Shown: one piece after another, positions 4,935 through 26,737 of the stretch
Layout: each line of letters opens with the position of its first letter
Position numbering within the stretch: position 1 is the first letter of the stretch
Origin: Pedobacter sp.
GTDB lineage: Bacteria > Desulfobacterota > Desulfuromonadia > Desulfuromonadales > Syntrophotaleaceae
DNA length: 64,000 bases
Direction: 5' to 3'
NCBI GenBank assembly: GCA_050253415.1
Contig: JBFWJC010000001.1
Location: forward strand, 744,679-808,678
Made by a program: the position numbers and the translations under genes
Notes under the pieces: model-generated
Seen by the model: the letters and a program-made list of their open reading frames with translations, nothing else
Databases searched by the model: none
Told to the model about the DNA's origin: nothing

Positions 4935-5469
4935 ACTACAAGACCGCGGGGTTGCGCCCCCGCCCGGCGCCTTACTTTTTGTCCAAGCCAACAAAAAGTA
5001 AGCAAAAAATGGCTTTCCCCTGCGGGGGGCAATGTGGTCGCGAAAAGTGGCGGATCCCAAAACGATGGCGTCAACCCATCGTGCCACTGGTTTCTTGGTA
5101 CTGTTTCTTTTACGCAGGTTACTGAATCAAGAGGACAGTTGCTCCTCTTGCGAAACGGGCAGCAAGGTGTTGTTGAGTGAAAAGCTTAAGCAAAACCTGA
5201 ACCCAAATCTTTGCAGAGCCGGATCTCGGTGTGCCTTTACCCGCAGCGACGGTGTTGAAAAGATCCTCCTTCACCGGTGGTAAATCACCTCTGGTGGCAA
5301 GTGGAGCGCCCGCAGACGCGCCATTCCTGGATCGCAGCGAGTGTGCGTTGAGCCTGATTCCTCCGCGCCAGTGGTGTCGGCGCAGCCAAGGCCATTTCTT
5401 TGGATACTTTCTTTGGGGCCTTGCAAAGAAAGTATCCCGGCTGCCGGCCGGGACCGGCGAACTTGAAGT
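4935..5469. repeat. Type-1 intergenic element (535 bp), full copy in opposite orientation to 1808-2342
   Basis: ACTACAAGACCGCGGGG...GGACCGGCGAACTTGAAGT; same length and ends as the first copy. Confidence 0.93.
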
Positions 5470-5502
5470 TAAGGTTTCAAGACTTCCGACAACCAAACAC
5501 CA

Positions 5503-5536: not shown

Positions 5537-6733
5537 CTACCAGACCACGATCATCACCCAAGTACAGAACAGCACGAAACAAACCCTTAACACCTGCGCA
5601 CTGACAGCCATCACCAGGCCGGGTCGTGCGCCGAGGGTGGCCAGGTAGGTGGGCAGGGCGTGGCGCAGGGTACGAATCGGGGCGGTGATGACCGAACCGA
5701 GCAGGATCACGGTGACGGCCTGTTTGATGGACAGGCTGCCGGCATCGACGAAGTTGGCTGCCGCGATGGCGCCGTTATACATATTGACCGCCTGGGCCGG
5801 GATAATGGCTACCGCCTGCGGTGGCAAGAAAGCGGGTTTGAACACACTGGGCAGCCACACCGCCAGGTATTCGAAAACCTTGCATTGTTCCAGCAGCGCC
5901 ATGGCCGCGAAGGTCGGTACCACGTACAGCAGCAGGCGCCGGATGGTGCGCCGGGATCGCTTCCATACCCGTTTCCAGAAATCCACACTGGCAAAAGCCG
6001 GTCGTTGCAGTGTTTTGCCGTTATCGGCAACGGCCTGGCCAGGGACATTGAAACCGGCCCGGTCTTCATTCCACCGCTGGCTGAGCCAGCTGGAAACCAT
6101 CAGCACCAGCACGATTTCCAGGCCGATGGCGGCCAGTCTTACCCCGAACAGGGCACCGGTAGCCATCCAGCCGAAAGCGAAACCCAGTGGCACGATAAAG
6201 GTCGGCAGATGGGCAAACAGCGAGATGCAGGACACCACCAGTACGGAGGTATAGAGATGGCGGTTGTTAATAACCCCCTCGTCGCGGTACGAGACCAGCA
6301 TGCTGTTGGCTACCGCACCCGATTGAAAGGCCATGATAAAGGCCGGAGCTGCCGCGCGGGGCAGGCGTCCCAGTCGGATCAGCGGCCAGGCCAGCACCGA
6401 TAAAGCACTTATCCAGCCAGCCACCTCCAGAATCTGACCGATGAGGATACCTGCGGCAATGATAAAGCCCAGTTCCACCAGCAATACCGCTTTTTGCGGC
6501 CAGAAAGGGAGTTTGCGTTTCCAGCTGCTGTAGGCGGAAGGCCGGGATCTTTCTTGGCGGCGTGCCTGCTCCAGAGCGCGGCCCCGTTCCCCTTCGGCCC
6601 GGATTTTGCCAGGTTTTGACGTAGCGACTTCGGTGGTGGCTGAATGTTCCATGGCTGCAACAGGACAGACGTGTCCCATTGATCCCAACCCGAGAGTCAG
6701 CAAGACCAGCAGCAATAGCAGGGTGCGTCGCAT
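5537..6733 (-). CDS. Nucleoside-recognition (Gate) domain membrane protein, possible metal or corrinoid transporter
   Basis: N-terminal hydrophobic leader and many TM segments; PLIRLGRLP..AAPAFIMAF and a conserved-looking RTLRHALPTY motif; 4 nt downstream of cbiK. Confidence 0.7.
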   Translation of the reverse strand: MRRTLLLLLVLLTLGLGSMGHVCPVAAMEHSATTEVATSKPGKIRAEGERGRALEQARRQERSRPSAYSSWKRKLPFWPQKAVLLVELGFIIAAGILIGQILEVAGWISALSVLAWPLIRLGRLPRAAAPAFIMAFQSGAVANSMLVSYRDEGVINNRHLYTSVLVVSCISLFAHLPTFIVPLGFAFGWMATGALFGVRLAAIGLEIVLVLMVSSWLSQRWNEDRAGFNVPGQAVADNGKTLQRPAFASVDFWKRVWKRSRRTIRRLLLYVVPTFAAMALLEQCKVFEYLAVWLPSVFKPAFLPPQAVAIIPAQAVNMYNGAIAAANFVDAGSLSIKQAVTVILLGSVITAPIRTLRHALPTYLATLGARPGLVMAVSAQVLRVCFVLFCTWVMIVVW

Positions 6734-6737
6734 ACGT

Positions 6738-7613
6738 TTATCCTTCTGCTGCCTGGAGGGCGGTCATAGCGGCATCAAGGTGACGGAAGAAGATGTCGCG
6801 GATGCCGGCGTTGTAGCCGAGCGGCCGGGAACAGGTCGCTTCAGGGGCGCCAATCAGGCTTTTCCACGAATCGGGTTCGTCACCCAGGACATCGTTCTCG
6901 ATGTGATCGCCGGCTACCAGCATCAACGGCACGAAATGCACCGCCCCCGCTTTTGCGGCATGTTCCCGCGCCCAGGGCAATTTGGCCAGGCCGGGTTTTC
7001 CTTCCACGCTGCAGATGACGGCGTTGTCGCATTGCGATTCGACGGTAGCGGCAAAGTCCAGTAACGCCTGATTGTAGCGGGAGTATTTGCTGTTGCCGTG
7101 GGTGACGAACACCGTCGGACGGTCCGAAGCGATGTCTTCGCTTACCGCGGCAGCTACGGCACGGATATCTTCAGGCGTTGCCATCAGCGGTTGCCCGTAA
7201 GATACTTTCACGCTGCCGGTCGGGACCTGGGCTATTTCCGCATCCTTTTCACCGGGCACGATCATCAGCGATTGCAGTACGGCCTGACGATAGCCCTGGG
7301 CCTGAAGTTCTGCGAGGGTTTCTGGCAGGTTACGCACCTGGACCCCGCGTGTGTGCAGCCGATCCACAACGGTCTGGGAGGTGAAAGCCAGGAAGATGTC
7401 ATGGTCTGGATAGCGTTCCTGCGCTGCCTGCTCGATGACGTCGAACACTTCCCGACCTTTGTCCGAAGTGGTACCGAAGGCGACCAGCACGATGGCCGGT
7501 GTTGTTTGGCTCATGATTGCATCCTTCCCAACAGCAGTGCCGGACTCTTTCGCCGCACAGCCGGGCAGGGCAAAAAGCAGCAGGCATGCGATGAATCTGG
7601 ATAGAAGGGTCAT
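6738..7613 (-). CDS. cbiK: Sirohydrochlorin cobaltochelatase CbiK with lipoprotein-like signal peptide
   Basis: AIVLVAFGTT, AFTS, QSLMIVPGE, HGN, PLMLVAGDHIENDV (both catalytic His); leader MTLLSRFIACLLLFALPGC. Confidence 0.92.
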   Translation of the reverse strand: MTLLSRFIACLLLFALPGCAAKESGTAVGKDAIMSQTTPAIVLVAFGTTSDKGREVFDVIEQAAQERYPDHDIFLAFTSQTVVDRLHTRGVQVRNLPETLAELQAQGYRQAVLQSLMIVPGEKDAEIAQVPTGSVKVSYGQPLMATPEDIRAVAAAVSEDIASDRPTVFVTHGNSKYSRYNQALLDFAATVESQCDNAVICSVEGKPGLAKLPWAREHAAKAGAVHFVPLMLVAGDHIENDVLGDEPDSWKSLIGAPEATCSRPLGYNAGIRDIFFRHLDAAMTALQAAEG

Positions 7614-7657: not shown

Positions 7658-7955
7658 TTTCAAGTCCACATTCCGGTTTTGGCCTTAGATGTGGTTTGGC
7701 TTATGTTTTTCACTCAACAACACCGTGCTGCCCGTTTCGCAAGAGGAACAACGGTCCTCTTGATTCAGTAATCCGCGTAAGAGAAACAGTCCCAAGAAAC
7801 CAGTGGCACGTTGGGTCGACGCCATCGTCGTGGAATCCGCCACTTTTCGCGACCCCATTGCCCCCCGCAGGGGAAAGCCATTTTTTGCTTACTTTTTGTT
7901 GGCTTGGACAAAAAGTAAGGCGCCGGGCGGGGGCGCGACCCCGCGGTCCTGAAGT
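7658..7955. repeat. Type-1 element, internally deleted copy (A-end stub plus B-half)
   Basis: 7692-7955 matches 8281-8544; ATTTCAAGT stub at the left, preceded by a linker remnant AAACCTTA. Confidence 0.88.
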
Positions 7956-8006
7956 CAGGGTTGCGTAGCGTGTTCCGAGTGCTGAGTTCAAAAGCTTACA
8001 ATCCTA

Positions 8007-8544
8007 AAGTCAAGTTCGCCGGTCCCGGCCGGCAGCCGGAATACTTTCTTTGCAAGGCCCCAAAGAAAGTACCCAAAGAAATGGCCTTGGCTGCGCCGAC
8101 ACCACTGGCGCGGAGGAATCAGGCTCAACGCACACTCGCTGCGATCCAGGAATGGCGCGTCTGCGGGCGCTCCACTTGCCACCAGAGGCGATTTGCCACC
8201 GGTGAAGGAGGATCTTTTCAACACCGTCGCTGCGGGTAAAGCAACACTGACATCCGGTTCCGCTAAAAAAAATTGGGTTGAGGTTTGGCTTATGCTTTTC
8301 ACTCAACAACACCGTGCTGCCCTTTTCGCAAGAGGAGCAACGGTCCTCTTGATTCAGTAATCCGCGTAAGAGAAACAGTCCCAAGAAACCAGTGGCACGA
8401 TGAGTCGACGCCATCGTTGTGGAATCCGCCACTTTTCGCGACCACATTGCCCCCCGCAGGGGAAAGCCATTTTTTGCTTACTTTTTGTTGGCTTGGACAA
8501 AAAGTAAGGCGCCGGGCGGGGGCGCGACCCCGCGGTCCTGAAGT
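8007..8544. repeat. Type-1 element, full copy within a 589-bp-period tandem array
   Basis: Both ends present; the linker 7956-8006 is repeated at 8545-8595. Confidence 0.93.
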
Positions 8545-8595
8545 CAGGGTTGCGTAGCGTGTTCCGAGTGCTGAGTTCAAAAGCTTACAATCCTA

Positions 8596-8828
8596 AACTC
8601 AAGTTCGCCGGTCCCGGCCGGCAGCCGGGATACTTTCTTTGCAAGGCCCCAAAGAAAGTATCCAAAGAAATGGCCTTGGCTGCGTCGACACCACTGGCGC
8701 GAAGGAATCAGGCTCAACGCACACTCACTATGATACTGAAATCGGGCGTCTGCGGACGCTCCATTTGCCACCATAGGCGGTTCGCTACCGGTGAAGGAGG
8801 ATCTTTTCAACACCGTCGCTGCTGGGTA
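8596..8828. repeat. Type-1 element, A-half only
   Basis: Matches 8007-8238, then similarity stops. Confidence 0.9.
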
Positions 8829-8915
8829 GTCAAAACCGACAGCTCGGTTTTGCATTAGCGTCGACGCGATTTCCGTTACGGAGGGCCGATGCCTCAGCCC
8901 TCCGTATCTAGCTGC

Positions 8916-10331
8916 TTACAGCGAAGTCAAATCGATGCTGGTCGTGGTGTCCGCATCCCAATCTTCCCACAGATAGGTGTCTTCCTTACCGTCGGCGATC
9001 AGACGCAGGGCATAGCGTACCTGCTCTTCGTACAGTTCGCAGAATGCGCCGGGGACGTTCTGGCCACCGTTCATTTCATGCGCTTCGGCGGGGCAGGGCG
9101 AACCGCAGAAATGGCGGATTGCGCAGTTTTTACAGGGGTCGATGTTTTCCACCACGCGTTCGGTGACAGCGCGGAAGGGTTCGCTTTGCAGCACCGCCTC
9201 GATATCGTCGGTGTACAGGTTGCCGCCTTTGAAGCGTTCCACACCGACGAATTCGCTGCAGGGGAACATGTCGCCGGAGGCGGACAGGGCGAAGAAACAG
9301 CGACCACCGCCGCAGGGCGAGATGTCGCACATCAGGCGGCGGGCCGCCGGTGCCACGACGCTGACCAGCACATTGGCGAAGTTGGCCACTACCAGCTTGC
9401 GGCCGGTTTTTTCGTACAGCTCGTAGGTGCGATCGAGGGCCTTGAGGTACCACTTGGCCATTTCATGATCGAGGGGCTTGATGTCGCGCGCGCCCTGGCG
9501 GGTGCAGCGTACCTGATTGAGCATGCAGATCGGAACCTCATGCTCGTGGAAGAAATCGACCATCTCCACCAGTTTGTCCATATTCTCCTGGGTGACGGTG
9601 CAGATGACGTTGAAATTGGCGTAGCCCTTGAGTTTGTTCATGGCCCGGACCACGTGGGCGTAGACACTGTCGCCTTCCCAGGTTTTGCGGGTGCGGGTGC
9701 AGATGTCTTCGAGGTGGCTGTCGAGGGACAGACCGATGCCGATGTTGCGCTCGGTAAGAAAGGCAATAGCTTCGTCATCCAGCAATGTGCCGTTGGTCTG
9801 TACGCCGAAACGGAAATCGTCCAGGTAGGCATCGATGCCGGCAAAAACCGCTTCGCGGGCCATCATAGGCTCGGCGCCGTGGAAGATGATCTGCGGCTTG
9901 TGACCCTCGGGAACGGTGGTTTTAAAGTATTCCTTGAGGATGCCCAGGGCTTTGATCAATTCGTCCGGAGTCATGGTCTTGCCGTCGCTGCGCATGTCCT
10001 CCGGGATGTAGCAGTAGGAACAGTTGAGATTGCAGCGGTCGGTGGGGTTGAAATAGACCGCCGACGGTTTCAGGCCGAAGCGCAAAGCGTCGATCTCCTC
10101 AAGGAATTCATCGCGACGGCTCAGAAACTGCTGCATGAAAGTGCTTTCGTTGCACAGCGCCTCACCCAGTTTGTCCTTCTGGATAAGGGACCAGAACGCC
10201 GCATCGGGATCGAGCAGCGCGACATACTCGGGGTGATCGATGCTGATGGGCAGCAAGCTGGGGCCGTTGCCGGTGTTGAAGTGGATGCCGCGGGAGCAGG
10301 CCTTGTTGTCAAACGTTTTTGTCTCGGACAT
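8916..10331 (-). CDS. cbpB: Peptide-modifying radical SAM/SPASM enzyme (CbpB type)
   Basis: CNLNCSYC radical SAM motif, IIFHGAEP, SPASM cysteines (CDISPCGGGRC, FPCSEF, CKNC..RHFCGSPCPAE); GAGGAG RBS; downstream of a short peptide gene. Confidence 0.9.
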   Translation of the reverse strand: MSETKTFDNKACSRGIHFNTGNGPSLLPISIDHPEYVALLDPDAAFWSLIQKDKLGEALCNESTFMQQFLSRRDEFLEEIDALRFGLKPSAVYFNPTDRCNLNCSYCYIPEDMRSDGKTMTPDELIKALGILKEYFKTTVPEGHKPQIIFHGAEPMMAREAVFAGIDAYLDDFRFGVQTNGTLLDDEAIAFLTERNIGIGLSLDSHLEDICTRTRKTWEGDSVYAHVVRAMNKLKGYANFNVICTVTQENMDKLVEMVDFFHEHEVPICMLNQVRCTRQGARDIKPLDHEMAKWYLKALDRTYELYEKTGRKLVVANFANVLVSVVAPAARRLMCDISPCGGGRCFFALSASGDMFPCSEFVGVERFKGGNLYTDDIEAVLQSEPFRAVTERVVENIDPCKNCAIRHFCGSPCPAEAHEMNGGQNVPGAFCELYEEQVRYALRLIADGKEDTYLWEDWDADTTTSIDLTSL

Positions 10332-10413
10332 GCAGTATCTCCTCAAATAGCGATATGGTTATCGGTTCCGCACTCATATTCGGCGGTCTTATACCTGGAT
10401 TGATTTTTAGGGT

Positions 10414-10478
10414 GCGGAGCGCTCGGGAGCGCTCCGCGGGGTTTCGTTTTTATGCGAGAAAAGGGTAGTTTCTCGCAT
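10414..10478. promoter_or_regulatory. Two stem-loops between the peptide gene and its maturase
   Basis: GCGGAGCGCTC-GG-GAGCGCTCCGC (10414-10437) and ATGCGAGAAA-N7-TTTCTCGCAT (10452-10478). Confidence 0.6.
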
Positions 10479-10484
10479 GAAAAC

Positions 10485-10586
10485 TTAGTTGGTCTTCTTG
10501 TCCATCAAGATGTAATGGGAAAGACCGGTGCCGCTCGCCGTGCAGGATTTGCGGTAGGCGATGACTTCCTTGCGCTGTTGCTTCAT
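10485..10586 (-). CDS. cbpA: Modified-peptide precursor (CbpA type), 33 aa: MKQQRKEVIAYRKSCTASGTGLSHYILMDKKTN
   Basis: Not in the ORF track. Strong RBS AAAGGAGGTGA, IAYRKSC...GTGLSHYIL motif, directly upstream of the radical SAM/SPASM gene. Confidence 0.9.
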   Translation of the reverse strand: MKQQRKEVIAYRKSCTASGTGLSHYILMDKKTN

Positions 10587-10701
10587 GCAATCACCTCCTT
10601 TCTTTTTGGATGGTGGAACAAAGCTCATCCCATCTGGCTGCGACGGATGTTGTTATGTTTTGATTCCCAACTAGCAACTTCGAAATATTCTTTATCTCTT
10701 T

Positions 10702-11188
10702 ACTTCCAAGACCGCGGGGTTGCGCCCCCGCCCGTCGCCTTACTCTTTTAAAACGCGTCAAAAGAGTAAGCAGAAAAGCGCGCCCCGCCTCCTTGCCCGC
10801 CTGCGGCGGGTACCCTGCGCTACGCAACCGCCGGGCGGGCGGAGAAGATTCGCTGCGCTCAGTCCTCCGCCTGTTTCGCCCGTCGCTTGCTTCGCTCCGG
10901 CAGCGTCACAGGGGAATTCAAAATCAAAAACAAACGCAAAAGCGTTTATCAAATCTCGCAGTGCCGGTGCAGGCAACGGCTGTGCTGCGAGCTGTGCGCA
11001 TCACTTCTGCTGATAAATGCGCCCTACGAAGACGTACTGCTTATCATTTGCTGTGACCGTTAGATGTCGCATTCCGTGTCGCGACAGACATAACGGCGAA
11101 GCCAGACGTTACGTCCTTTCTTTGCTTATTTTCTTTAGACGGGTAAAGAAAGTAAGCCGGCTGCCGGCCGGGACCGGCGAAGTTGTTC
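10702..11188. repeat. Type-2 element: same outer termini as type 1, different interior
   Basis: Starts ACTTCCAAGACCGCGGGGTTGCGCCCCCGCCCG plus a TTACTCTTT...AAAGAGTAA hairpin; ends with a TTCTTTA...TAAAGAA hairpin plus CCGGCTGCCGGCCGGGACCGGCGAA. Confidence 0.88.
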
Positions 11189-11200
11189 TTTTAGTCTTTA

Positions 11201-11416
11201 AAATCAAGACCGCGGGGTCGCGCCCCCGCCCGGCGCCTTACTCTTTTAAAACGCGTCAAAAGAGTAAGCAGAAAAGCGCGCCCCGCCTCCTTGCCCGCCT
11301 GCGGCGGGTACCCTGCGCTACGCAACCGCCAGGCGGGCGGAGAAGATTCGCTGCGCTCAGTCCTCCGCCTGTTTCGCCTGCCGATTGCTTCGCTCCGGCA
11401 GCGTCACAGGGGACTC
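11201..11416. repeat. Type-2 element, second copy of the B-half
   Basis: Near-identical to 10707-10915. Confidence 0.9.
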
Positions 11417-11440: not shown

Positions 11441-12115
11441 TCAAAAAGACTGTCTTCCCAACGCCAACTCACACAGAGCATGAATCACGCTGACCGCCAG
11501 CGGCGAACCGCCGCGCCGTCCTTCGATGGTGATGTAAGGCACGCCCATCTCCATCAATTCCTGTTTGCTTTCCACCACGTGAACGAATCCGACCGGCATG
11601 CCGATGACCAGTGCCGGACGCAGATCGGTTTCCTGGATCAGCCGGTTGAGTTCAAGAAGTGCGACCGGCGCATTGCCGAATACCGCGATGCCGCCGTGGA
11701 GTTGCTGTTCGGCTTTGCGCACGGCGTAAAGCGAACGTGGCAGGCTGGCCTGCCGTGCTTTTTCGGCGACGTCGGCATCGGCCACGTGGCACAGGATCGA
11801 CTCCGGCTGGTACGTGGGACATACCTTTTTCAGGCGTGCCAGCGACAGGCCCGACCGGATCATGTTGGAATCGGCGTAGATGGGCGCCCCGCCGCGCAGC
11901 GCCTGGCAGGCCGCATCGATGGCGTCGGGTGAAAAGCGCACCATGTCGAGCAGGGAAAAGTCAGCGGTGGTATGCACCATACGTCGCACCACCGGCCATT
12001 GCTCCGGCGTGAAGGTGTGGGCCGGTGCTTCCTGGTCGATGATAGCCAGGGAGCGGTCTTCGATCTGTTGCCCGCTTAAGGGGTTGTTCAGTAAATCGTG
12101 GATCAACGGTTTCAT
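11441..12115 (-). CDS. cbiC: Cobalt-precorrin-8 methylmutase
   Basis: IEDRSLAII, RRMVHTTAD, GNAPVAL, IGMPVGFVHVVESK, GRRGGS. Confidence 0.96.
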   Translation of the reverse strand: MKPLIHDLLNNPLSGQQIEDRSLAIIDQEAPAHTFTPEQWPVVRRMVHTTADFSLLDMVRFSPDAIDAACQALRGGAPIYADSNMIRSGLSLARLKKVCPTYQPESILCHVADADVAEKARQASLPRSLYAVRKAEQQLHGGIAVFGNAPVALLELNRLIQETDLRPALVIGMPVGFVHVVESKQELMEMGVPYITIEGRRGGSPLAVSVIHALCELALGRQSF

Positions 12116-13494
12116 GATTCTCCTCGGCAAAAATCGATAAAAGCCCTTGCCGCGCCGGGGCGGCTGGCAAAATGGACGTGGACATAGCTGGCGAACAGGC
12201 GGCTGCGTTGATAGCCTTCCGCTACCGGTTTGCCGGCGCGGCGATAGCTGACCTGCCAGGCGCTCTGCCAGTCCGGGGTGGCCGGTTCGGCAATGGCTTC
12301 GGAATAATGGAATTCGTGGCCGCGCAGGCAGGTGCCGGCAGCTCCGAAAGGCCCATCGGCAAGCTGGCGAACTTCCGCATAGCCAAGCCGCTTGCGGGTG
12401 GCCAGCATGCGGGTGGCAAAGGGCAGGGCTCCGGTCATGGCATGTCGGCTGCCGTCACGCAGTTCGATCCCTTCGGACAGGTACATGAGTCCGCCGCATT
12501 CGGCGTAGATCGGGCGGTTGGCGACGGCGAAAGCGGCCACGGCCTTGCGCATGGTGTGATTGGCTTCCAGCGTGGCGGCATGTTCCTCGGGATAGCCACC
12601 GCCAAGGAACAGAGCATCCAGATCGGCGGGCAGCGTGTTGTCATGCAGGGGGGAAAACCGCACCAGGGTCGCGCCGGCTTCTTCCAAAGCCTGAAGGTTG
12701 TCCGGATAGTAGAAATGGAACGCTTCATCAAACGCCAGGCCAATGCGAATCGGCCGATCTTGGTTGCCGGAGTCCGACGAAACGGGGATAGTCGGGCCTG
12801 ACGGTACCTTTTCGGCAAGGCCGAGGATGCGCGGCATGTCGAGCTGCCGTTCAACGGCGTCGGCCAGACTGTTCAGTGCTTCGGTCGTCAAATTCTGACG
12901 GTCTGCGGTGACCAGACCCAGATGGCGGCTGGGCAAGGTCGGCAGGGAATCCCGCATGACCGCTCCGGCCAGCGGCGGCAGGCCGACGGCGGCCAGGGCG
13001 TCCCCCAGCCAGTCGGCATGGCGCGCCGACCCGCAGCGGTTGGCGATGGCACCAGCCAGGTGCAGCTCGGGGTCGAATTCGGCGTACCCTTTGACCAGGG
13101 CGGCCAGGCTGCGGGCCATGCCATGGGCGTTGACCACCAGCAGTACCGGTGCGTCGAGCCAGCGGGCGATTTCTGCGGTACTGCCCTGGGCGCTTGCCGG
13201 GTCAGCGCCATCGAACAGGCCCATGACCCCCTCGATAATGGCGATATCCGCATCGGCACTGGCTTTTGCAAACCGTTCCTGCACGTAGTCGGGGCCGCAC
13301 ATCCAGCCGTCGAGGTTGATACAGGGACGACCGCTGGCCAGCGACAGCCAGGTGGGGTCGAGGAAGTCGGGTCCGACCTTGAAGGTCTGGACGTTCAAGC
13401 CCCGCCGGCGCAGGGCGGCTGTCAGCCCCAGAGTCAGGGAGGTTTTGCCGACGCCGCTGGAGGTGCCGGCGATGACCAGTCTTGGACAACTCAT
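12112..13494 (-). CDS. cbiA: Cobyrinate a,c-diamide synthase
   Basis: AGTSSGVGKT, FKVGPDFLDP, IEGVMGLFDG, LPSRHLGL, AECGG, GHEFHYS. Confidence 0.97.
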   Translation of the reverse strand: MSCPRLVIAGTSSGVGKTSLTLGLTAALRRRGLNVQTFKVGPDFLDPTWLSLASGRPCINLDGWMCGPDYVQERFAKASADADIAIIEGVMGLFDGADPASAQGSTAEIARWLDAPVLLVVNAHGMARSLAALVKGYAEFDPELHLAGAIANRCGSARHADWLGDALAAVGLPPLAGAVMRDSLPTLPSRHLGLVTADRQNLTTEALNSLADAVERQLDMPRILGLAEKVPSGPTIPVSSDSGNQDRPIRIGLAFDEAFHFYYPDNLQALEEAGATLVRFSPLHDNTLPADLDALFLGGGYPEEHAATLEANHTMRKAVAAFAVANRPIYAECGGLMYLSEGIELRDGSRHAMTGALPFATRMLATRKRLGYAEVRQLADGPFGAAGTCLRGHEFHYSEAIAEPATPDWQSAWQVSYRRAGKPVAEGYQRSRLFASYVHVHFASRPGAARAFIDFCRGES

Positions 13495-14225: not shown

Positions 14226-15185
14226 TTAGTTGGTCGTTAGCCATATCCACCCGAATCTCATGCTCAAAAATGCCAGCGCCGCCAACAGCGAAGTGAGCAG
14301 CATCAGCTGCACCGCTGCTGCAATGTGCCGGGATGCCAATGGTTGCCCGGCATCGCCAAAATAGGGCATGTCGGTCAGTTTGCCCTGGCGGTAGACCGGA
14401 CCGCCCAGTTGAATCTCCAGGGCGCCGGCGGTGGCGGCTTCGCTCCAGCCTGAGTTGGGGCTGGGATGGTTGCGCCAGTCGCGCAGGGCGATGCGCCAGG
14501 TGTGTTTCGGGCGCAGGCCGAGCAGGGCGGCTGCGGTTACCGTGATCGGCAGGGTCAGGCGCGCCGGCAGGTAGTTGAGCACGTCGTCAAAGCGGGCCGA
14601 GGCCCAGCCGAACTGCAGGTAACGTTCGTTTTTGTAGCCGAAGGTCGAGTCGAGGGTGCTGGCGGCCTTGTACGCCAGGGCGCCGATCGGACCGAGCAGC
14701 ACCGCCCAGAACAGCGGCGCGGTGACGCCATCCACGGTGTTTTCCGCCACGCTTTCCACCGCCGCACGCACTACCCCGGACCGGTCGAGAGGAGCGGTGT
14801 CGCGGCCGACCAGCCAGCCGACGCGTTGCCGGGCCAGTTCCAGGTTGCCAAGGCGCAGGGCCTTGAGAACCTGCCAGGCGTGCACGGCCAGGTCGCGGGC
14901 GGCGAAGCAGGTCGAGAGCAGCAGGATGCCCAGGGCGTCACCCGCCCAGGGGTGCAGGCGGTATGCTGCGGTAAGCAGCAGGGTGGACACTCCTGCCGTG
15001 GTGGCGACGACGATCATGGTCGTGACGATGCCGGCCAATCGCGGATTGGTAATACTGCGGCGCAGCGGGGCTTCCAGGGCCATGGCCAGCCGTCCCATGC
15101 CTTTGACCGGATGCGGCAGGCGGCGCGGGTCGCCCCACAGCAGATCGAGGCCGATGGCGGCCAGTATCTGCATCTCGAGAGTCAT
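14226..15185 (-). CDS. cbiB: Adenosylcobinamide-phosphate synthase
   Basis: [47 protein letters not shown]. Confidence 0.96.
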
Positions 15186-17776
15186 CGCAACCCCATAAGG
15201 CGATAGATGGCGGGGATGTCGAGACTTTGGCGCACGGCGTCGGCCAGCCGTTCAAAAGCCGGTTCCAGATCGTAGCTGGCCTGGATGGTGCCGAGGGGCT
15301 TGAGACCCTTGCGTTGCCGCAAACGGTCGATGAACCAGCGGCGGAAACCATCGGCGTCGAGCAGGCCGTGCAGATAGCTGCCCCAAAGCAGGCCGTCGCT
15401 GCGGCAGGCGCCCATGGCCTGTCCGCTGCTGCCGATCAGAGCTGGCGGAATGTCTTCTGCCCGGCTCTGGCCATGATGGATTTCGTAGCCGAAGACTTTC
15501 ATGCCGGAAATGCGGTGGCGGGCTTCGGTGCGCGTCAGGGTTTTGTCCTGCTCGAGAACCGTGTCGATGGGAAGCAGCCCGAGACCGACCAACTCGGTTC
15601 CCGGTGATTCGATGCCATGCGGATCGTTGATCGAACGACCGAGAATCTGGTAACCGCCGCAAATGCCGACGATTTCACAGCGGCCCGCGGCGGCCAGCTC
15701 TTGCAGACTGCGGTCGAGGCCGACGGCGCGCAGAAAGGTCAGGTCGCCGATGACGTTTTTGCTGCCCGGCAGGATCACGGCATCCGGGCGACCAAGATCC
15801 TGTACGCGTCGTACGATGCGCAAGCGGACATCCGGTTCGATGCGCAGCGGTTCCACATCGGTGAAATTGGAAATGTGCGGCAGGTCGAGCACGACGATAT
15901 CTACGCCGTCGTCCGCGGAACGCTGGTCGTCGAACAGACCGGACTTGAAGCCGACGGAATCTTCTTCCGGCAGGCCCAGATCCTTCAGGTAGGGCACCAC
16001 CCCGAATACCGGACGTCCGGTGTGCTCCAGGGTGTAATCGAGCGCATCTTTGAGCAGGCTGGCCTGACCCCGAAACCGGTTGACGACGAATCCGGCGATC
16101 TGGGCGCGTTCACTTTCCGACAGGACTTCCATGGAACCGACAAACGAAGCGAAAACGCCGCCGCGGTCGATATCGCCGACCATCAGCACCGGAGCTTTTG
16201 CATACTGGGCCATTTTCATGTTGACGATGTCATGGGCCTTGAGATTGACCTCGGCAGGGCTGCCGGCGCCTTCCAGTACCACGGCGTCATACCCGGCGGC
16301 CAAAGAGTCGTAGGATTCCTTGACCCGTTCGAAGGCTTCGGCCTTGTAACGGAAATATTCCATGACTTTCATATTGCCGACCGGTTTGCCGCAAACGATC
16401 ACCTGGCTGCCGGTGTCGCTGCTCGGCTTGAGCAGGATGGGGTTCATGCGCACGTCCGGATCCAGTCGCGCGGCCTGGGCCTGCACGACCTGGGCGCGCC
16501 CCATCTCTCCGCCGTCGCGGGTGACGAAGGAGTTCAACGACATGTTCTGGGCTTTGAACGGCGCCACCCGGTAGCCGTCCTGCAGCATGATGCGGCACAG
16601 GGCGGCGGCCAGAACACTCTTGCCCGCATTGGAACTGGTGCCCTGGAACATGATGGCCGGTGTATGGTGGCGGGTGGTGATCAGGGGCGCCATGAAAAGT
16701 TCCTGGCGCAGAGCTTCGACCAGTTGCTGGTTTTCGGGTTCGGTGCGCACCGCGATCCGGAAGAAACGTCGGTCAAGGCCTTCGAAATTATCGCAGACCC
16801 GGATGGCCAGGCCGCGTTTGAGTAATCGCGCAGCCAGGGCGGGTGCGTCCATGGAGGTGCGATCACAGCGCACCAGCATGAAATTTGCCTGCCCCGGATA
16901 GACCTTCAGGTAGGGAATCTGCTCCAGTTGCATACGCAATTTGTCGCGCAGAACACCGATGGCGGCCCGTGACTGTTGGGTGTACTCGGTATCGAGCAAG
17001 GCAGCCTCGCCGACCTTCTGGGCGATCGTATTGACCGACCAGGGGGGTTGCAGAGATTTGACCTTCTGCACGGTTGACGGCGAAGCCACGGCCAGGCCCA
17101 GGCGCAATCCGGGGATGGCGAAAATCTTGGTCAGAGACAGCATTACCACGACATTGCCGGGGCGGTTGACGGTGAGGCTGTCGAAATCTTCCACAAAATC
17201 GGCAAAAGCCTCATCCACGATAAAGGTCGCGTTAGGGAAACGCCGCGCCAGATGCCGTAGGCGATGCGCGTCGAAGGTCCGGCCCGTCGGATTGTTGGGT
17301 TGACCCAGGGGCACCATGGTGGGGGTGTCCGCCAATGCCTTCAAGGCTGCTTCGACCTGATCGAAGTCGAGGGCGAAGCCGGTTTCTTCTGACATAGGCA
17401 GAATGTGAATTCTCAAACCGGCGACACGCGCGGCACTTGCGTAATCGACATAGCTCGGCACCGGGATGAGTGCCTGCCGAACCTTGAGAGCATGGGGAAG
17501 CAGGTAAAACAGCTCGGTGGAACCGTTGCCGATAAGAATCTCGTCAGGATTTACGCCATAACGCTCGCAAGCGGCCTCGACCAATGCCTGGCCCTCAGGG
17601 TCGGGGTAGTGCACCAACGAGCTGATGCTGCCACTGATGCGGGCGCGCAACCACTCGGGGGGGCCCAGAGGGTTGATGTTGGCCGAAAAGTCGCGCAGTG
17701 ATTCGGGGTTCACACCGGCGGTCATGGCCAATTGTCGCAGGTGGCCTCCGTGTCGCCAGTTGCCGGATTCCGTCAT
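15182..17776 (-). CDS. cbiP: Fusion of threonine-phosphate decarboxylase CobD and cobyric acid synthase CbiP/CobQ
   Basis: N-half [39 protein letters not shown]-half [39 protein letters not shown]. Confidence 0.95.
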
Positions 17777-17813: not shown

Positions 17814-18349
17814 ACTACAAGACCGCGGGGTTGCGCCCCCGCCCGGCGCCTTACTTTTTGTCCAAGCCAACAAAAAGTAAGCAAAAAATGGCTTTCCCCT
17901 GCGGGGGGCAATGTGGTCACGACAGGTGGAAGATTCCACGACGATGGCGTCAACCCATCGTGCCACTGGTTTCTTGGTACTGTTTCTCTTACGCAGGTTA
18001 CTGAATCGAGATGGCCATTACTCCTCTTGCGAAATGGGCAGCAAGGTGTAGTTGAGTGAAAAGCCTAGGCAAAACCTCAACCCAAATCTTCGCCGAGCCG
18101 GAACTCGGTGTGTCTTTACACGCAGCGACGGTGTTGAAAAGATCCTCCTTCACCGGTGGCAAATCAACTCTGGTGGTAAGTGGAGCGCCCGCAGACGCGC
18201 CATTCCAGGATCGCTGCGCCGGTTCGCAAAGCCATCTCTTTTTCGCGCTAGTGGTGTCGGCGCAGCCAAGGCCATTTCTTTGGATACTTTCTTTGGGGCC
18301 TTGCAAAGAAAGTATCCCGGCTGCCGGCCGGGACCGGCGAAGTTGAAGT
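17814..18349. repeat. Type-1 element, full copy
   Basis: Aligns over its full length with 4935-5469. Confidence 0.93.
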
Positions 18350-18382
18350 TAAGGTTTCAAGGCTTCCGACAACCAAACACCA

Positions 18383-18718
18383 ACTTCCAGACCGCGGGGT
18401 CGCGCCCCCGCCCGGCGCCTTACTTTTTGTCCAAGCCAACAAAAAGTAAGCAAAAAATGGCTTTCCCCTGCGGGGGGCAATGTGGTCGCGAAGGGTGACG
18501 AATCCTATAATCCTTGCGTTAATTGATCATGCCGCTGGTTTCTTGAAACTGTCCCTCTTGCGAGAGGGATAGCTAAAGAGAGCATTTACTCCTCCTGCGA
18601 TGTGGTCATTAAGGTGTTATTGGGTGAAAAGCTTAAGCAAATCCTCAACCCATAACATCAGCAATACCGGTTTGCCGGTGTGTCCTTACCTGCCGGCCGG
18701 GACCGGCGAACTTGAAGT
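18383..18718. repeat. Type-1 element, diverged copy lacking ~200 bp including the A-end hairpin
   Basis: Intact B-end; interior jumps from GTGTGTCCTTAC to CTGCCGGCCGGGACCGGCGAACTTGAAGT. Confidence 0.88.
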
Positions 18719-23008: not shown

Positions 23009-23093
23009 AACGTTTTTTATCCGCCTGTTACGGTTTGCACACGGCGAATCTTTGTCCGGCCTCAATCCTCGAAGGTCGTAACAGCACGTGTGC

Positions 23094-23254
23094 AGGACAG
23101 GCAGGTCTTCTGGCTCCCGGGTCATTCTTTCGGCCACGCCTTCCCTTTCGTCGTTACGAAAAGTGGCATTCTGTGGCTTTCGTCACCGGTTACAGCGGCG
23201 GGACCGCGACGGATTCACACCGTCTTCCCTGTTAGGCTTTAAAGCACCTGTCCT
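23094..23254 (-). ncRNA. Cobalamin (B12) riboswitch
   Basis: Minus strand AGGACAGGTG...AACAGGGAA-GACGGTGTGAATCCGTC-GCGGTCCCGCCGCTGTAA...GCCACT...GGGAAGGC...GAGCCAGAAGACCTGCCTGTCCT (B12 box), upstream of the cob/cbi cluster. Confidence 0.97.
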
Positions 23255-23378
23255 TGGTCAAATTGTAAGGCACCAGGTCGAAGCTGCAAGCTTCTAAGTA
23301 CCTGTTGTATGTTTTAACAGATGACCTCCGGTAAAACTATCCCCAAAATGGGGTATTTCTTTTCTCCCCCATCGAATA

Positions 23379-24206
23379 TCAGGATGAGGTGTCTGACACC
23401 GGTTCGTGACGCAAACGCAGATGCCAGGCCAGCGGCAGACAGAATTTGGAGATACCGGTCAGAAGGGTTCCGGTTAGTACGATGGCCCACATGGTCCCGG
23501 CATCCAGCTGGTCCCGGAACAGCCCGGTGACCAGGGTGGTGCCCCACAGCAGGCTTAATCCAAGTATCAGCTGAACATTCTGGCTCATGGCGTGTATGCC
23601 CCAGAAATTTTCGGAAATACGACTCAGATTGCCATGACGCAATTTAATTTCAATGAGTTTAAACCAGACCCGCCCTTCGGCGACCTGCGCCGAGCCGTCG
23701 AAAATATGATGCAGCAGATAAAGCACGATAAGCAGATATTTGCTGAAGGTCAAATTGCCGAAACAGGAGCTGAAAAACGGCGGATAGCACAGCACCAGCA
23801 TCGCTGCGCCGAGGGCCTGGCCGATGCCGACCAGGGTCAGCCCGTTGATAAGCTTTTGCAGCTGATGATGTTTGTCGGCCAATCGCTCCAGGTGATCGAC
23901 AAAGGATGAGACTTTGATGCTGCTGACGAAGGTGATGCCGGGATACACATATTTGGTTAATACCCCCAGCACCGCGGCGACCTTGTACTCGGTTTCGGCC
24001 ATGGTGAACATGGTGTAGAGAACCGCGCCTTCAAGGATGCTCTTGCCTATCGTGTACATGAAGTTACCGGCTTCGCCAAAACGGTAGAAGCGGCTGATGA
24101 CCAGCGCATGAGCCCATAGGTGCGTCTTGTGGATGACATCACGGACCAGCCCGGGGTGTCCATTGTGGGAAGGCGACTCAATCTTAGGAGGCAGTTCATG
24201 ATTCAT
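23379..24206 (-). CDS. Unknown integral membrane protein (about 5-6 TM segments)
   Basis: 275-aa ORF with several hydrophobic segments; no family recognised. Confidence 0.75.
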   Translation of the reverse strand: MNHELPPKIESPSHNGHPGLVRDVIHKTHLWAHALVISRFYRFGEAGNFMYTIGKSILEGAVLYTMFTMAETEYKVAAVLGVLTKYVYPGITFVSSIKVSSFVDHLERLADKHHQLQKLINGLTLVGIGQALGAAMLVLCYPPFFSSCFGNLTFSKYLLIVLYLLHHIFDGSAQVAEGRVWFKLIEIKLRHGNLSRISENFWGIHAMSQNVQLILGLSLLWGTTLVTGLFRDQLDAGTMWAIVLTGTLLTGISKFCLPLAWHLRLRHEPVSDTSS

Positions 24207-24293: not shown

Positions 24294-24358
24294 CTGTCGA
24301 GCATAGCTGCTTCTGTAGTCGGGACGCCGGCGGCTACCGCCGACGTCCCTGGATGAGA

Positions 24359-26620: not shown

Positions 26621-26737
26621 GTGACACCTCCATTGTTCGGGTGAACCACAGGGTCTGTGATTTTCTTAGGGTTACCCTGTGTGTCAGTTCGCGTACACGG
26701 ATAGAGAAGATCGTCTAACGGAGATGATGCCAAAATT

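Follow-up and report, generated by a model that had tools for sequence, protein, structure and literature searches.

Within a 64,000-nucleotide stretch of DNA, referred to here as the window, we examined a pair of genes on the minus strand, cbpA and cbpB, which encode a short peptide and a radical SAM/SPASM enzyme. The pair and the features around it are listed here, numbered from the first nucleotide of the window.

5537..6733, minus strand: Gate-domain membrane protein (PF07670, 33.2 bits)
6738..7613, minus strand: CbiK family protein, the downstream neighbour (PF06180, 144.1 bits), with a signal-peptide/lipobox-like N-terminus
7690..8860: 589-nt dispersed repeat, two copies, filling the gap between cbpB and the CbiK-like gene (44 genome matches)
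8916..10331, minus strand: cbpB, 471-aa radical SAM/SPASM peptide maturase (TIGR04163, PF04055, PF13186)
10339..10344, minus strand: Shine-Dalgarno GAGGAG of cbpB, 7 nt before the ATG at 10331 (read from the sequence)
10414..10437 and 10452..10478, minus strand: two stable hairpins in the spacer between cbpA and cbpB (RNA fold)
10485..10586, minus strand: cbpA, 33-aa precursor peptide (TIGR04164, alignment A1, synonymous-codon pattern)
10592..10598, minus strand: Shine-Dalgarno GGAGGTG of cbpA, 5 nt before the ATG (read from the sequence)
10688..11413: 498-nt dispersed repeat, two copies, filling the gap between cbiC and cbpA (50 genome matches)
11441..12130, minus strand: cbiC (precorrin-8X methylmutase), the upstream neighbour (PF02570, 235.8 bits)
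23083..23266, minus strand: cobalamin riboswitch at the head of the cob cluster (RF00174, 121.8 bits), 12.5 kb upstream of cbpA

The cbpA reading frame translates as MKQQRKEVIAYRKSCTASGTGLSHYILMDKKTN. An earlier note on this DNA had described it as a 33-residue frame with a strong ribosome-binding site, one Cys, one His and two Tyr, all of which we confirmed from the sequence. That note had also assigned the two genes to the CbpA and CbpB families and proposed a profile search to check this. CbpA scored 60 bits against the NCBIfam model TIGR04164 (cut-off 35, E 1.1e-16, profile positions 1-25 of 25), and CbpB scored 790.7 bits against TIGR04163 (cut-off 375, profile positions 2-428 of 428). 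Both curated cut-offs are passed, the match goes far beyond chance, and it is virtually certain that the window pair is a true member of the CbpA/CbpB family. It matches the family in its proteins, gene order, core motif and B12 context, and differs from it only locally, where dispersed repeats have been inserted to either side. NCBIfam already lists the family by name; the pair is a standard member of it and, for the window itself, ordinary. Our literature search, in a library without subscription journals or the texts of database annotations, turned up no publication on these proteins and no published function. In the 2013 TIGRFAMs paper, the word cobalamin is absent and the sole match to "TIGR0416" is TIGR04160, a methanobactin companion family.

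The pair had been placed between cbiC and cbiK. The gene order is as claimed, but the pair is adjacent to neither gene: repeats about 850 nt long separate cbpA from cbiC, and some 1300 nt of them lie between the CbiK-like gene and cbpB. A 92%-identical relative (L010) lacks these dispersed repeats, and its corresponding gaps are 143 nt and 330 nt. The neighbour called a chelatase does belong to the CbiK family and is the sole PF06180 match in the genome, but because its N-terminus is signal-peptide-like, it may not be the cytoplasmic chelatase. No protease or exporter gene is adjacent to the pair in the window, as had been stated, nor is one conserved among the related loci in the flanks that were annotated. 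Between 7500 and 11600 we found 18 terminator-like hairpins against 5.6 expected, and the same scan found no sigma-70-like promoter in that stretch, against 1.6 expected. The spacer between cbpA and cbpB is 153 nt long in the window. Its RNA fold has an energy of -52.2 kcal/mol (z -4.84), and none of 200 shuffled sequences folded as well. Neither spacer hairpin is followed by a U-run on the coding strand, and these hairpins may stabilise or attenuate the transcript. On the plus strand, a 504-residue antisense open reading frame (8889-10403) overlaps cbpB and is probably a shadow frame of a G+C-rich gene.

The peptide is strongly conserved. In an alignment of 61 sequences (A1), the residues R12, C15, G19, G21, L22, S23, H24 and Y25 are invariant and Y11 varies; the window CbpA carries all eight invariant columns and the core motif R-K-x-C-x3-G-x-G-L-S-H-Y. 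Positions I9, A10, K13, T20 and L27 are at least 90% conserved, and conservation spans about 22 residues, on both sides of GLSHY. The segment G-x-G-L-S-H-Y is nearly invariant among relatives, and the 229 CbpA cores that we compared read GLSHY in 225 cases, GLSHF (Tyr to Phe) in 3 and GLAHY in 1. Cys15 is missing from 4 of these cores, and in 14 more its distance to GLSHY is shifted by 1-4 residues. Across 75 loci, the entropy at the codons of the six invariant residues G, G, L, S, H and Y was 0.06, 0.00 and 1.47 bits at codon positions 1, 2 and 3, respectively. Because all synonymous codons are used for the invariant residues of G-x-G-L-S-H-Y, we infer that the cbpA peptide is translated; this codon comparison shows selection on CbpA at the amino-acid level.

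Tandem CbpA modules, two per protein, occur in two natural proteins, which is what a substrate would be expected to show. Most of the other "longer" CbpA matches are over-called starts. In three Omnitrophota proteins an Asn-synthase-like domain runs in frame into CbpA, and single fusions of CbpA to CbiM (one protein) and to CbpB (one protein) were also seen. We considered the fusions as pointers to a functional partner and rejected them as too few and too lineage-bound. Assembled metatranscriptome contigs, a source blind to strand, transcript ends and co-transcription, cover cbpA and parts of cbpB, and the regions that they leave uncovered carry no information. One contig from an RNA-labelled run spans 10438-10605 with no differences; DNA carry-over is possible, and we regard this as a weak hint that cbpA is expressed.

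We compared the window with 80 related loci, which span at least ten phyla. In 76 of these 80 loci cbpA comes just before cbpB on the same strand, and these are all 76 of the loci where enough sequence is available; the four that have no cbpA call extend no more than 160 nt upstream beyond the cbpB match. The median gap between the two genes is 39 nt. This shows that cbpA and cbpB always travel together. At least one carrier, Rhodoblastus acidophilus DSM 137 (locus L033), is cultured.

The relationship of the pair to B12 control differs between the window and the family. The earlier note had proposed co-regulation by the B12 riboswitch. Family-wide, the link to B12 is much stronger than the sequence of the window alone could have shown. 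Within the window, the single Rfam match is the riboswitch at 23083..23266, and three repeat-filled gaps with terminator-like hairpins lie between it and cbpA; because it is 12.5 kb away, with dispersed repeats in between, co-regulation in this window is not established. Among the related loci, a cobalamin riboswitch lies directly before cbpA in 61 of 75 (60 by script, at less than 600 nt upstream, and one, L075, by inspection). Rfam RF00174 confirmed it in 28 of the 28 loci tested (8/8 and 20/20), and it ends a median of 69 nt before the called cbpA start (55 loci with a positive distance). Of the 14 loci that have no direct riboswitch, 13 are in cob operons and one follows a TonB-dependent receptor gene. 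The cob-operon loci have cbiC, cobS or cobDQ upstream of the pair, and in ten of them the pair comes straight after cbiC. Thus in most lineages the pair is shown to sit directly behind a cobalamin riboswitch, and otherwise inside a cob operon. We consider it very likely that cbpAB belongs to the B12 regulon, and we describe the CbpA/CbpB family as a self-contained two-gene module of that regulon.

The genes that follow cbpB are less uniform. Same-strand B12-related genes found 3' of cbpB encode CbiM/CbiN (5 loci), CbiX (1), CbiK (the window and L010), CobT (5, all in Syntrophales and directly after the pair), CobC (3), a BtuF-like protein (2) and CobQ (1); at one locus there is an adenosyltransferase gene with a TonB receptor gene. 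Twelve annotated loci lack cob neighbours altogether and have unrelated flanking genes, the next one often on the opposite strand. Placement before the chelatase and Gate protein had earlier been taken to suggest a role in cobalt handling. The wider comparison does not bear out a cobalt-specific role, since cobalt genes (CbiK, CbiM/N, CbiX) follow cbpB in 8 loci only, the window and 7 of the 80, and the remaining loci have cobT, cobC, cobQ, BtuF-like or unrelated genes there. Within the window's own family, CbpB and CbiC occur in exactly the same 6 of 17 genomes, and CbpB occurs in none of the 11 that lack CbiC. Elsewhere in the order we sampled 24 further families, of which 20 have CbiC and none has CbpB, so the pair is dispensable for B12 synthesis in general. 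Neither CbiC nor CbiF was found in three small cbpAB-carrying MAGs (0.9-1.2 Mb, completeness not given); if these genomes are complete, this would be a hint against a role tied to cobalt insertion.

The architecture of CbpB is that of a peptide-modifying enzyme. It matches the Pfam models Radical_SAM (PF04055, 71.1 bits) and SPASM (PF13186, 30.2 bits), and Pfam found no PqqD domain in it. Across 40 sequences, the radical SAM CxxxCxxC cysteines (C100/C104/C107) are invariant, as are eight further ones at positions 335, 340, 358, 400, 403, 409, 413 and 431. The enzyme is 56-70% identical between phyla, and its top 120 relatives, which come from several phyla, share 64-93% identity with it. An AF2 model of CbpB (pLDDT 80.9) has strands at 27-29, 36-41 and 46-51 and helices at 52-58 and 64-85, from which the N-terminal domain, about residues 27-85, is predicted to be RRE-like. 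The best Foldseek matches to this model are CteB (5why/5wgg), followed by anSME, ChlB and SuiB.

An ESMFold2 model of the CbpA-CbpB complex scored 0.85, against 0.01 for the best of three controls, a mark that 116 of 157 solved complexes reach and only 2 of 215 mismatched pairs, although the pass may partly reflect likeness because the model resembles solved RRE-peptide complexes. At least 73% of contacts agree between runs, and the partner pLDDT is at least 67. In the model, CbpA residues 7-10 lie against CbpB 46-51 (strand 3 of the N-terminal domain), the VIA-x-RK segment is placed on the RRE-like domain, and residues 5-29 form the interface and are threaded through the barrel mouth. We conclude that CbpB is likely to use CbpA as its substrate.

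Comparison with characterised enzymes suggests what the chemistry might be. CteB, the thioether maturase of the SCIFF peptide CteA (PDB 5wgg/5why), is the best profile match to CbpB (116.6 bits) as well as the best fold match (E 1e-19 over 464-472 columns, N-terminal domain included), and its substrate contains Cys, as CbpA does. However, CteB and CbpB are only 22% identical, the SCIFF maturase model gives 104 bits against a cut-off of 425, and CbpA has one Cys where the SCIFF peptide has six, with 4 of 229 CbpA cores having none. No B12 control is known for SCIFF systems. The PapB model is the best non-CbpB NCBIfam match (135.7 bits) and QhpD gives 101.9 bits, both far under their cut-offs of 340 and 453. 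PapB-type ranthipeptide maturases and QhpD make Cys thioethers and use an acidic acceptor residue, which is not invariant in CbpA. The anaerobic sulfatase maturase anSME (PDB 4k36-4k39; 93.6 bits, Foldseek E about 1e-15) has the radical SAM and full SPASM fold in common with CbpB. It oxidises Cys or Ser of its substrate, and CbpA has an invariant Cys and Ser. On the other hand, anSME is without an N-terminal RRE-like domain, its alignment beginning at CbpB residue 89, and CbpA lacks the C/S-x-P/A-x-R sulfatase motif. We put thioether chemistry by CbpB at somewhat short of even odds. The 4 of 229 cores that lack Cys15, and the 14 more in which its spacing varies, weaken the proposal of a thioether ring of fixed size. 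From the natural variants without Cys or with Phe for Tyr, His24 is predicted to be the most important residue for modification.

Taken together, these observations point to a cytoplasmic peptide, repressed by B12 and modified by its enzyme, with a part in supplying cobalt or corrinoids, a reading to which we assign a probability of roughly 0.55. Under this reading, scarce B12 would lead to expression of cbpAB. Through its VIA-x-RK segment, CbpA would add a beta-strand to the RRE-like N-terminal domain of CbpB. This would bring the invariant C-x3-G-T-G-L-S-H-Y stretch to the radical SAM/SPASM active site, where hydrogen abstraction would install a modification within CbpA. Our first guess at this modification is a thioether that links Cys15 to the GLSHY segment, and our second is a Cys-independent cross-link centred on His24/Tyr25. 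The modified CbpA would be neither cut nor exported, would remain inside the cell, small and basic, and would help to provide the B12 pathway with cobalt or corrinoid, for instance by binding the metal or the corrinoid through His24 and Cys15. A role in cobalt or corrinoid handling is itself tentative. Its most specific form, in which modified CbpA is a riboswitch-controlled carrier or cofactor that binds cobalt or corrinoid through the invariant His (and Cys) when B12 is scarce, is possible but doubtful. Such a carrier would be a peptide-based metallochaperone counterpart for the early-cobalt pathway or a salvage route, in anaerobes of at least ten phyla. According to a review, CbiK takes cobalt at in vivo availabilities and does both supply and insertion, which implies that a chaperone is not required in Salmonella; the review also describes CobW as the B12-cluster metallochaperone by which cobalt is supplied in the late-insertion pathway (PMC7689651). 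CobW is an unrelated GTPase, and would be a possible functional analogue of CbpA in proposed role alone.

Alternatively, the conserved segment could be destined for excision. In the manner of PQQ or mycofactocin, CbpB would cross-link the S-H-Y region and housekeeping proteases would free a small redox-active or metal-binding molecule, which would be used by an enzyme of the B12 pathway. The PqqA/PqqE and MftA/MftC systems resemble cbpAB in pairing a small, strongly conserved precursor with a SPASM enzyme, and in having a housekeeping, non-antibiotic role. The small number of strictly invariant residues, the retention of GLSHY in 225 of 229 cores and the established B12 control are likewise consistent with a cofactor. 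Those systems carry several more dedicated genes, however. Unlike them, cbpAB has no protease, oxidase or other tailoring gene conserved beside it, and the mycofactocin maturase model (MftC) gives CbpB 55 bits, far under its cut-off of 265. The roughly 22 conserved residues around GLSHY fit a product that keeps its whole length, and we consider excision unlikely.

It could also be the case that cbpAB replaces or spares a B12-dependent function, as metE or nrd do behind B12 riboswitches. This would be in keeping with the riboswitch-controlled stand-alone operons far from cob genes (12 annotated loci) and with the MAGs in which CbiC and CbiF were not detected. It sits poorly with the 13 of 75 loci in which the pair is embedded in a cob operon, ten of them straight after cbiC and some with CbiK or CbiM next, and with the restriction of the pair to CbiC genomes in the window's family (6/6 versus 0/11). 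We therefore rate a stand-in as quite unlikely.

A third possibility is that CbpA is a scaffold or partner subunit rather than the final substrate, and that it would hold or present to CbpB something other than a peptide, for instance a precursor of the lower ligand or a corrinoid intermediate, on which CbpB would act. Conservation of the whole peptide with no visible leader/core split, the dispensability of Cys in 4 of 229 cores and the CobT genes directly 3' in five Syntrophales loci would all suit such an arrangement. Yet the combination of an RRE-like domain, a radical SAM domain and a full SPASM domain is typical of enzymes that act on peptides or proteins, and the nearest structures, CteB, anSME, ChlB and SuiB, all act on peptide or protein residues. 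The modelled path of CbpA 5-29 through the barrel mouth and the existence of tandem two-module precursors also speak for a substrate, which leaves a scaffold very improbable. Finally, the closeness of the PapB (135.7 bits) and DynA (133.2 bits) models and of CteB might suggest a sactipeptide- or ranthipeptide-like product that is secreted as an antimicrobial or a signal and whose genes lie among the cob genes by coincidence. We consider this highly implausible: exporter, leader protease and immunity genes are not conserved with the pair, the peptide hardly changes between Planctomycetota and Syntrophales, unlike fast-evolving bacteriocins, and 61 of 75 loci are under B12 riboswitch control. 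The earlier note's view that the product is not an antimicrobial is supported here, as the classical features of an exported RiPP (leader peptidase, exporter) are absent in the window and unconserved in the flanks.

We return to modified CbpA as a peptide that would stay in the cell, and to cbpAB as a gene pair that probably assists the supply of B12 or cobalt in a way not recognised before. The B12 pathway is among the best mapped in microbiology, yet cbpAB is B12-regulated and has no assigned step. The module is directly testable, as it consists of two genes only and its peptide is short enough for mass spectrometry. If its product carries cobalt or corrinoids, it would be a new kind of player in B12 supply, a peptide matured by a radical SAM enzyme, and would help explain how some anaerobes handle scarce cobalt or B12.

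The pair pointed out in the earlier note, a 33-aa ORF followed by a radical SAM/SPASM gene, is real. The genes, and the riboswitch that stands first in their cluster, lie as follows:

10485-10586, minus strand: cbpA, encoding MKQQRKEVIAYRKSCTASGTGLSHYILMDKKTN
8916-10331, minus strand: cbpB, 471 aa, with an ATG start preceded by GAGGAG
23083-23266, minus strand: riboswitch RF00174, 121.8 bits

GGAGGTG is found 5 nt ahead of the cbpA ATG, and the 153-nt spacer between the genes contains two strong hairpins (-52.2 kcal/mol, z -4.84 by RNA folding). CbpA scored 60 bits against the NCBIfam model TIGR04164, "modified peptide precursor CbpA" (cut-off 35), and CbpB scored 790.7 bits against TIGR04163, "peptide-modifying radical SAM enzyme CbpB" (cut-off 375), with Radical_SAM and SPASM domains identified by Pfam. 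Both the observation and the family names given in the earlier note are therefore correct. The genome encodes one CbpA and one CbpB. The pair is a standard member of an already named family and so no new discovery.

A protein search gave 2514 matches at E <=1e-20 among 8000 candidates scored, the best 120 of which were 64-93% identical to the CbpB of the window. Scanning one genome per species yielded 119 relatives, from which 80 loci were kept. Their record titles assign them to Desulfuromonadales, Syntrophales, Desulfomonile, Desulfovibrionales, Anaeromyxobacteraceae, Planctomycetota, Verrucomicrobiota, Lentisphaerae, Kiritimatiellota, Omnitrophota, Dehalococcoidia, Acidobacteriota and Rhodoblastus acidophilus DSM 137. 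One bin each was labelled Desulfotomaculum and Thermoleophilia; the peptides in both are of the Syntrophales type, and mis-binning is possible. When a profile built from the CbpA core was run over all six frames of the 80 loci, cbpA turned up immediately upstream of cbpB, and on its strand, in 76, and each of the other four had at most 160 nt available upstream of the cbpB match.

Across 61 aligned peptides, R12, C15, G19, G21, L22, S23, H24 and Y25 were invariant, and I9, A10, K13, T20 and L27 were at least 90% conserved, while Y11, the first of the two tyrosines remarked on in the earlier note, varied. The six invariant residues of GxGLSHY use all synonymous codons, with entropies of 0.06, 0.00 and 1.47 bits at codon positions 1, 2 and 3 (75 loci). 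Such a pattern marks selection acting on a product that is translated. There is no long leader: the 67 of 75 called peptides that are 60 aa or shorter have a median of 36 aa, and the shortest, at 29 aa, has only three residues ahead of the VIA segment. A profile search of the full library gave 260 representative clusters; 227 proteins (P0121-P0347), holding 229 cores, were analysed. The motif was GLSHY in 225 cores, GLSHF in three and GLAHY in one; the Cys was missing in four and shifted by 1-4 residues in 14. Several natural variants were seen. P0220 and P0221 (75-76 aa) each hold a tandem of two complete CbpA modules; in P0206, CbpA is fused to CbpB and Ala stands in place of the Cys; P0193 links CbpA directly to CbiM, CbpB being absent between them; and the cores of P0217, P0209 and P0330 lack the Cys, one of the three being from Prosthecochloris sp. 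GSB1. At an Omnitrophota locus (L065, 6683-7732), an Asn-synthase-like (PF00733) protein reads in frame, without a stop, into a CbpA core. Three diverged proteins of this form (P0173, P0191 and P0196; 343-349 aa) contain a zinc-ribbon-like CxxC...CxxC stretch, and CbpA may here be genuinely fused to a second modifying enzyme.

The regulatory context of these loci places cbpAB in the B12 regulon across phyla. RF00174 lies directly upstream of cbpA in all eight loci examined that have no cob neighbours (68-93 bits), and likewise in 20 of 20 further loci. Using an nhmmer profile trained on confirmed elements, we detected a same-strand riboswitch-like element no more than 600 nt from cbpA in 60 of 75 loci, or 61 with L075, where the start call had been too long; the median distance from element end to called cbpA start was 69 nt (55 loci with a positive distance). 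Among the 14 remaining loci, cbiC is directly upstream in ten; cobS is upstream in two and cobDQ in one, these last three having a riboswitch-like element at the operon head; and one is a short contig with a TonB-dependent receptor gene upstream. In seven Planctomycetota loci (L011, L012, L013, L028, L034, L042 and L059), two riboswitch-like elements stand back to back on opposite strands, one heading cbpAB and the other cobC-cobU-cobT-cobS; both elements of L059 were confirmed by Rfam.

In the window, cbpAB sits inside a long minus-strand cobalamin cluster. After the riboswitch come a cysG-like gene, cobC, cobU, cobT, cobS, a cobD/cobQ fusion, cbiB, cobO, cbiA and cbiC, followed by cbpA, cbpB, a CbiK family gene, a Gate-domain gene, cbiL, cbiD, further methylases and cbiG. 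The fusion (15182-17776, minus) is one 864-aa ORF joining a CobD-type aminotransferase domain to CobQ domains. Just past the riboswitch lie large ORFs of 275 aa (23379-24206, minus) and 763 aa (24353-26644, plus), for which Pfam gave no match at E 1e-4; the latter is overlapped by an antisense ORF of 753 aa, so that either strand may code. The cluster genes are not contiguous, and the larger gaps hold two related dispersed repeat families, with units of about 589 and 498 nt, often in tandem and bearing GC-rich hairpins, which may be MITE-like or REP-like:

1811-2358: dispersed intergenic repeats
4935-5481: dispersed intergenic repeats
7690-8860: dispersed intergenic repeats
10688-11413: dispersed intergenic repeats
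17814-18715: dispersed intergenic repeats

Two 498-nt repeats (50 matches across the genome) occupy the gap between cbiC and cbpA, and two 589-nt repeats (44 matches) that between cbpB and the CbiK-like gene. In a relative, L010, whose CbpB is 92% identical, the same genes are closely packed without repeats (cbiC, 143 nt, cbpA, 147 nt, cbpB, 330 nt, cbiK), so the repeats are a recent local insertion. Between 7500 and 11600 we counted 18 terminator-like hairpins versus 5.6 expected, and found no sigma-70-like promoter. The proposed co-regulation by the B12 riboswitch is supported as family context; in the window itself the element is distant, with repeats and terminator-like hairpins between, and may or may not still govern cbpAB. 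A contig from an RNA-labelled metatranscriptome run spans 10438-10605 with zero differences, and contigs from other such runs cover parts of cbpB; carrying no strand or transcript ends, and coming from libraries that may contain DNA, they are a weak hint of expression.

Among 41 related genomes, the window's own included, CbpB was found in six, all from its own family, and CbiC was present in exactly the same six of the 17 genomes of that family. Of the 24 other families sampled from the order, 20 had CbiC and none had CbpB. It follows that the pair accompanies a single kind of cob cluster and that B12 synthesis in general can do without it. The flanks of 12 loci lacking cob genes are mutually unrelated, the next gene often being on the opposite strand, which shows that the unit is cbpA and cbpB alone. 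Where a same-strand B12-related gene follows cbpB, it is CbiM/CbiN (five loci), CbiX (one), CbiK (the window and L010), CobT (five), CobC (three), CobQ (one), a BtuF-like binding protein (two) or an adenosyltransferase with a TonB receptor (one). The absence of an adjacent protease or exporter noted earlier extends to the annotated related loci, where none recurs. This pattern supports a B12-related, non-antibiotic role, with cobalt, a corrinoid or another target all compatible. Just 3' of cbpB in L019, from a Chthoniobacteraceae genome, lies a group II intron domain (9430-9535, minus; RF00029, 46.8 bits).

CbpB has invariant cysteines at C100, C104 and C107 and eight more, enough for two fully ligated auxiliary clusters. 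Its closest solved relatives by sequence are CteB (5wgg, 116.6 bits) and anSME (93.6 bits). CteB is also the best structural match (E 1e-19, 464-472 columns) of the AlphaFold2 model (pLDDT 80.9, pTM 0.83), followed by anSME, TigE, ChlB and SuiB. Modelled residues 27-85 form three strands and two helices, a predicted fold as in RiPP recognition elements (RREs). Three runs of a CbpA-CbpB complex model that included SAM and three clusters gave scores of 0.85, 0.84 and 0.86, versus 0.01 for the best of three controls. Of 157 solved complexes, 116 attained that mark, as did 2 of 215 mismatched pairs. The score may partly reflect likeness to RRE-peptide complexes, since such complexes have been solved. 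Contact agreement between runs was at least 73% and partner pLDDT at least 67. In the models, CbpA 7-10 runs along CbpB 46-51, CbpA 11-14 packs against CbpB 326-328, and the remainder, as far as residue 29, sits along the barrel mouth and the SPASM domain. The models support binding of CbpA by CbpB.

The families nearest CbpB, those of PapB, the SCIFF maturase and QhpD, make Cys thioethers, and anSME, also near, oxidises Cys or Ser. As the Cys of CbpA is near-invariant, our first guess, held at somewhat below even odds, is a thioether from this Cys into the GLSHY segment. Three facts weaken the thioether: four natural cores have no Cys, the spacing between Cys and GLSHY varies, and the His is absolutely conserved. 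A cross-link centred on His or Tyr therefore stays a serious alternative.

We infer that the CbpA product would stay inside the cell and would work in cobalt or corrinoid supply. CbiK, CbiM/N or CbiX follows cbpB in three lineages, as a cobalt role would suggest. Against such a role, most cbpAB loci stand alone, three small MAGs (completeness not given) have cbpAB without detectable CbiC or CbiF, and CbiK is reported (PMC7689651) to acquire cobalt unaided in Salmonella. The CbiK family protein of the window (6738-7613, minus) is the sole PF06180 match in its genome. Its N-terminus, MTLLSRFIACLLLFALPGC, looks like a signal peptide or lipobox, a Gate-domain membrane protein (5537-6733, minus) comes next, and a small CbiX is encoded about 100 kb away (646295-646606 of the same contig); because of these features, the CbiK family protein and the Gate-domain protein may be an envelope uptake system rather than the cytoplasmic chelatase. 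In the literature searched we found no published function for the CbpA/CbpB family, which poses a well-defined problem through its tight coupling, in many phyla, to B12 riboswitches.
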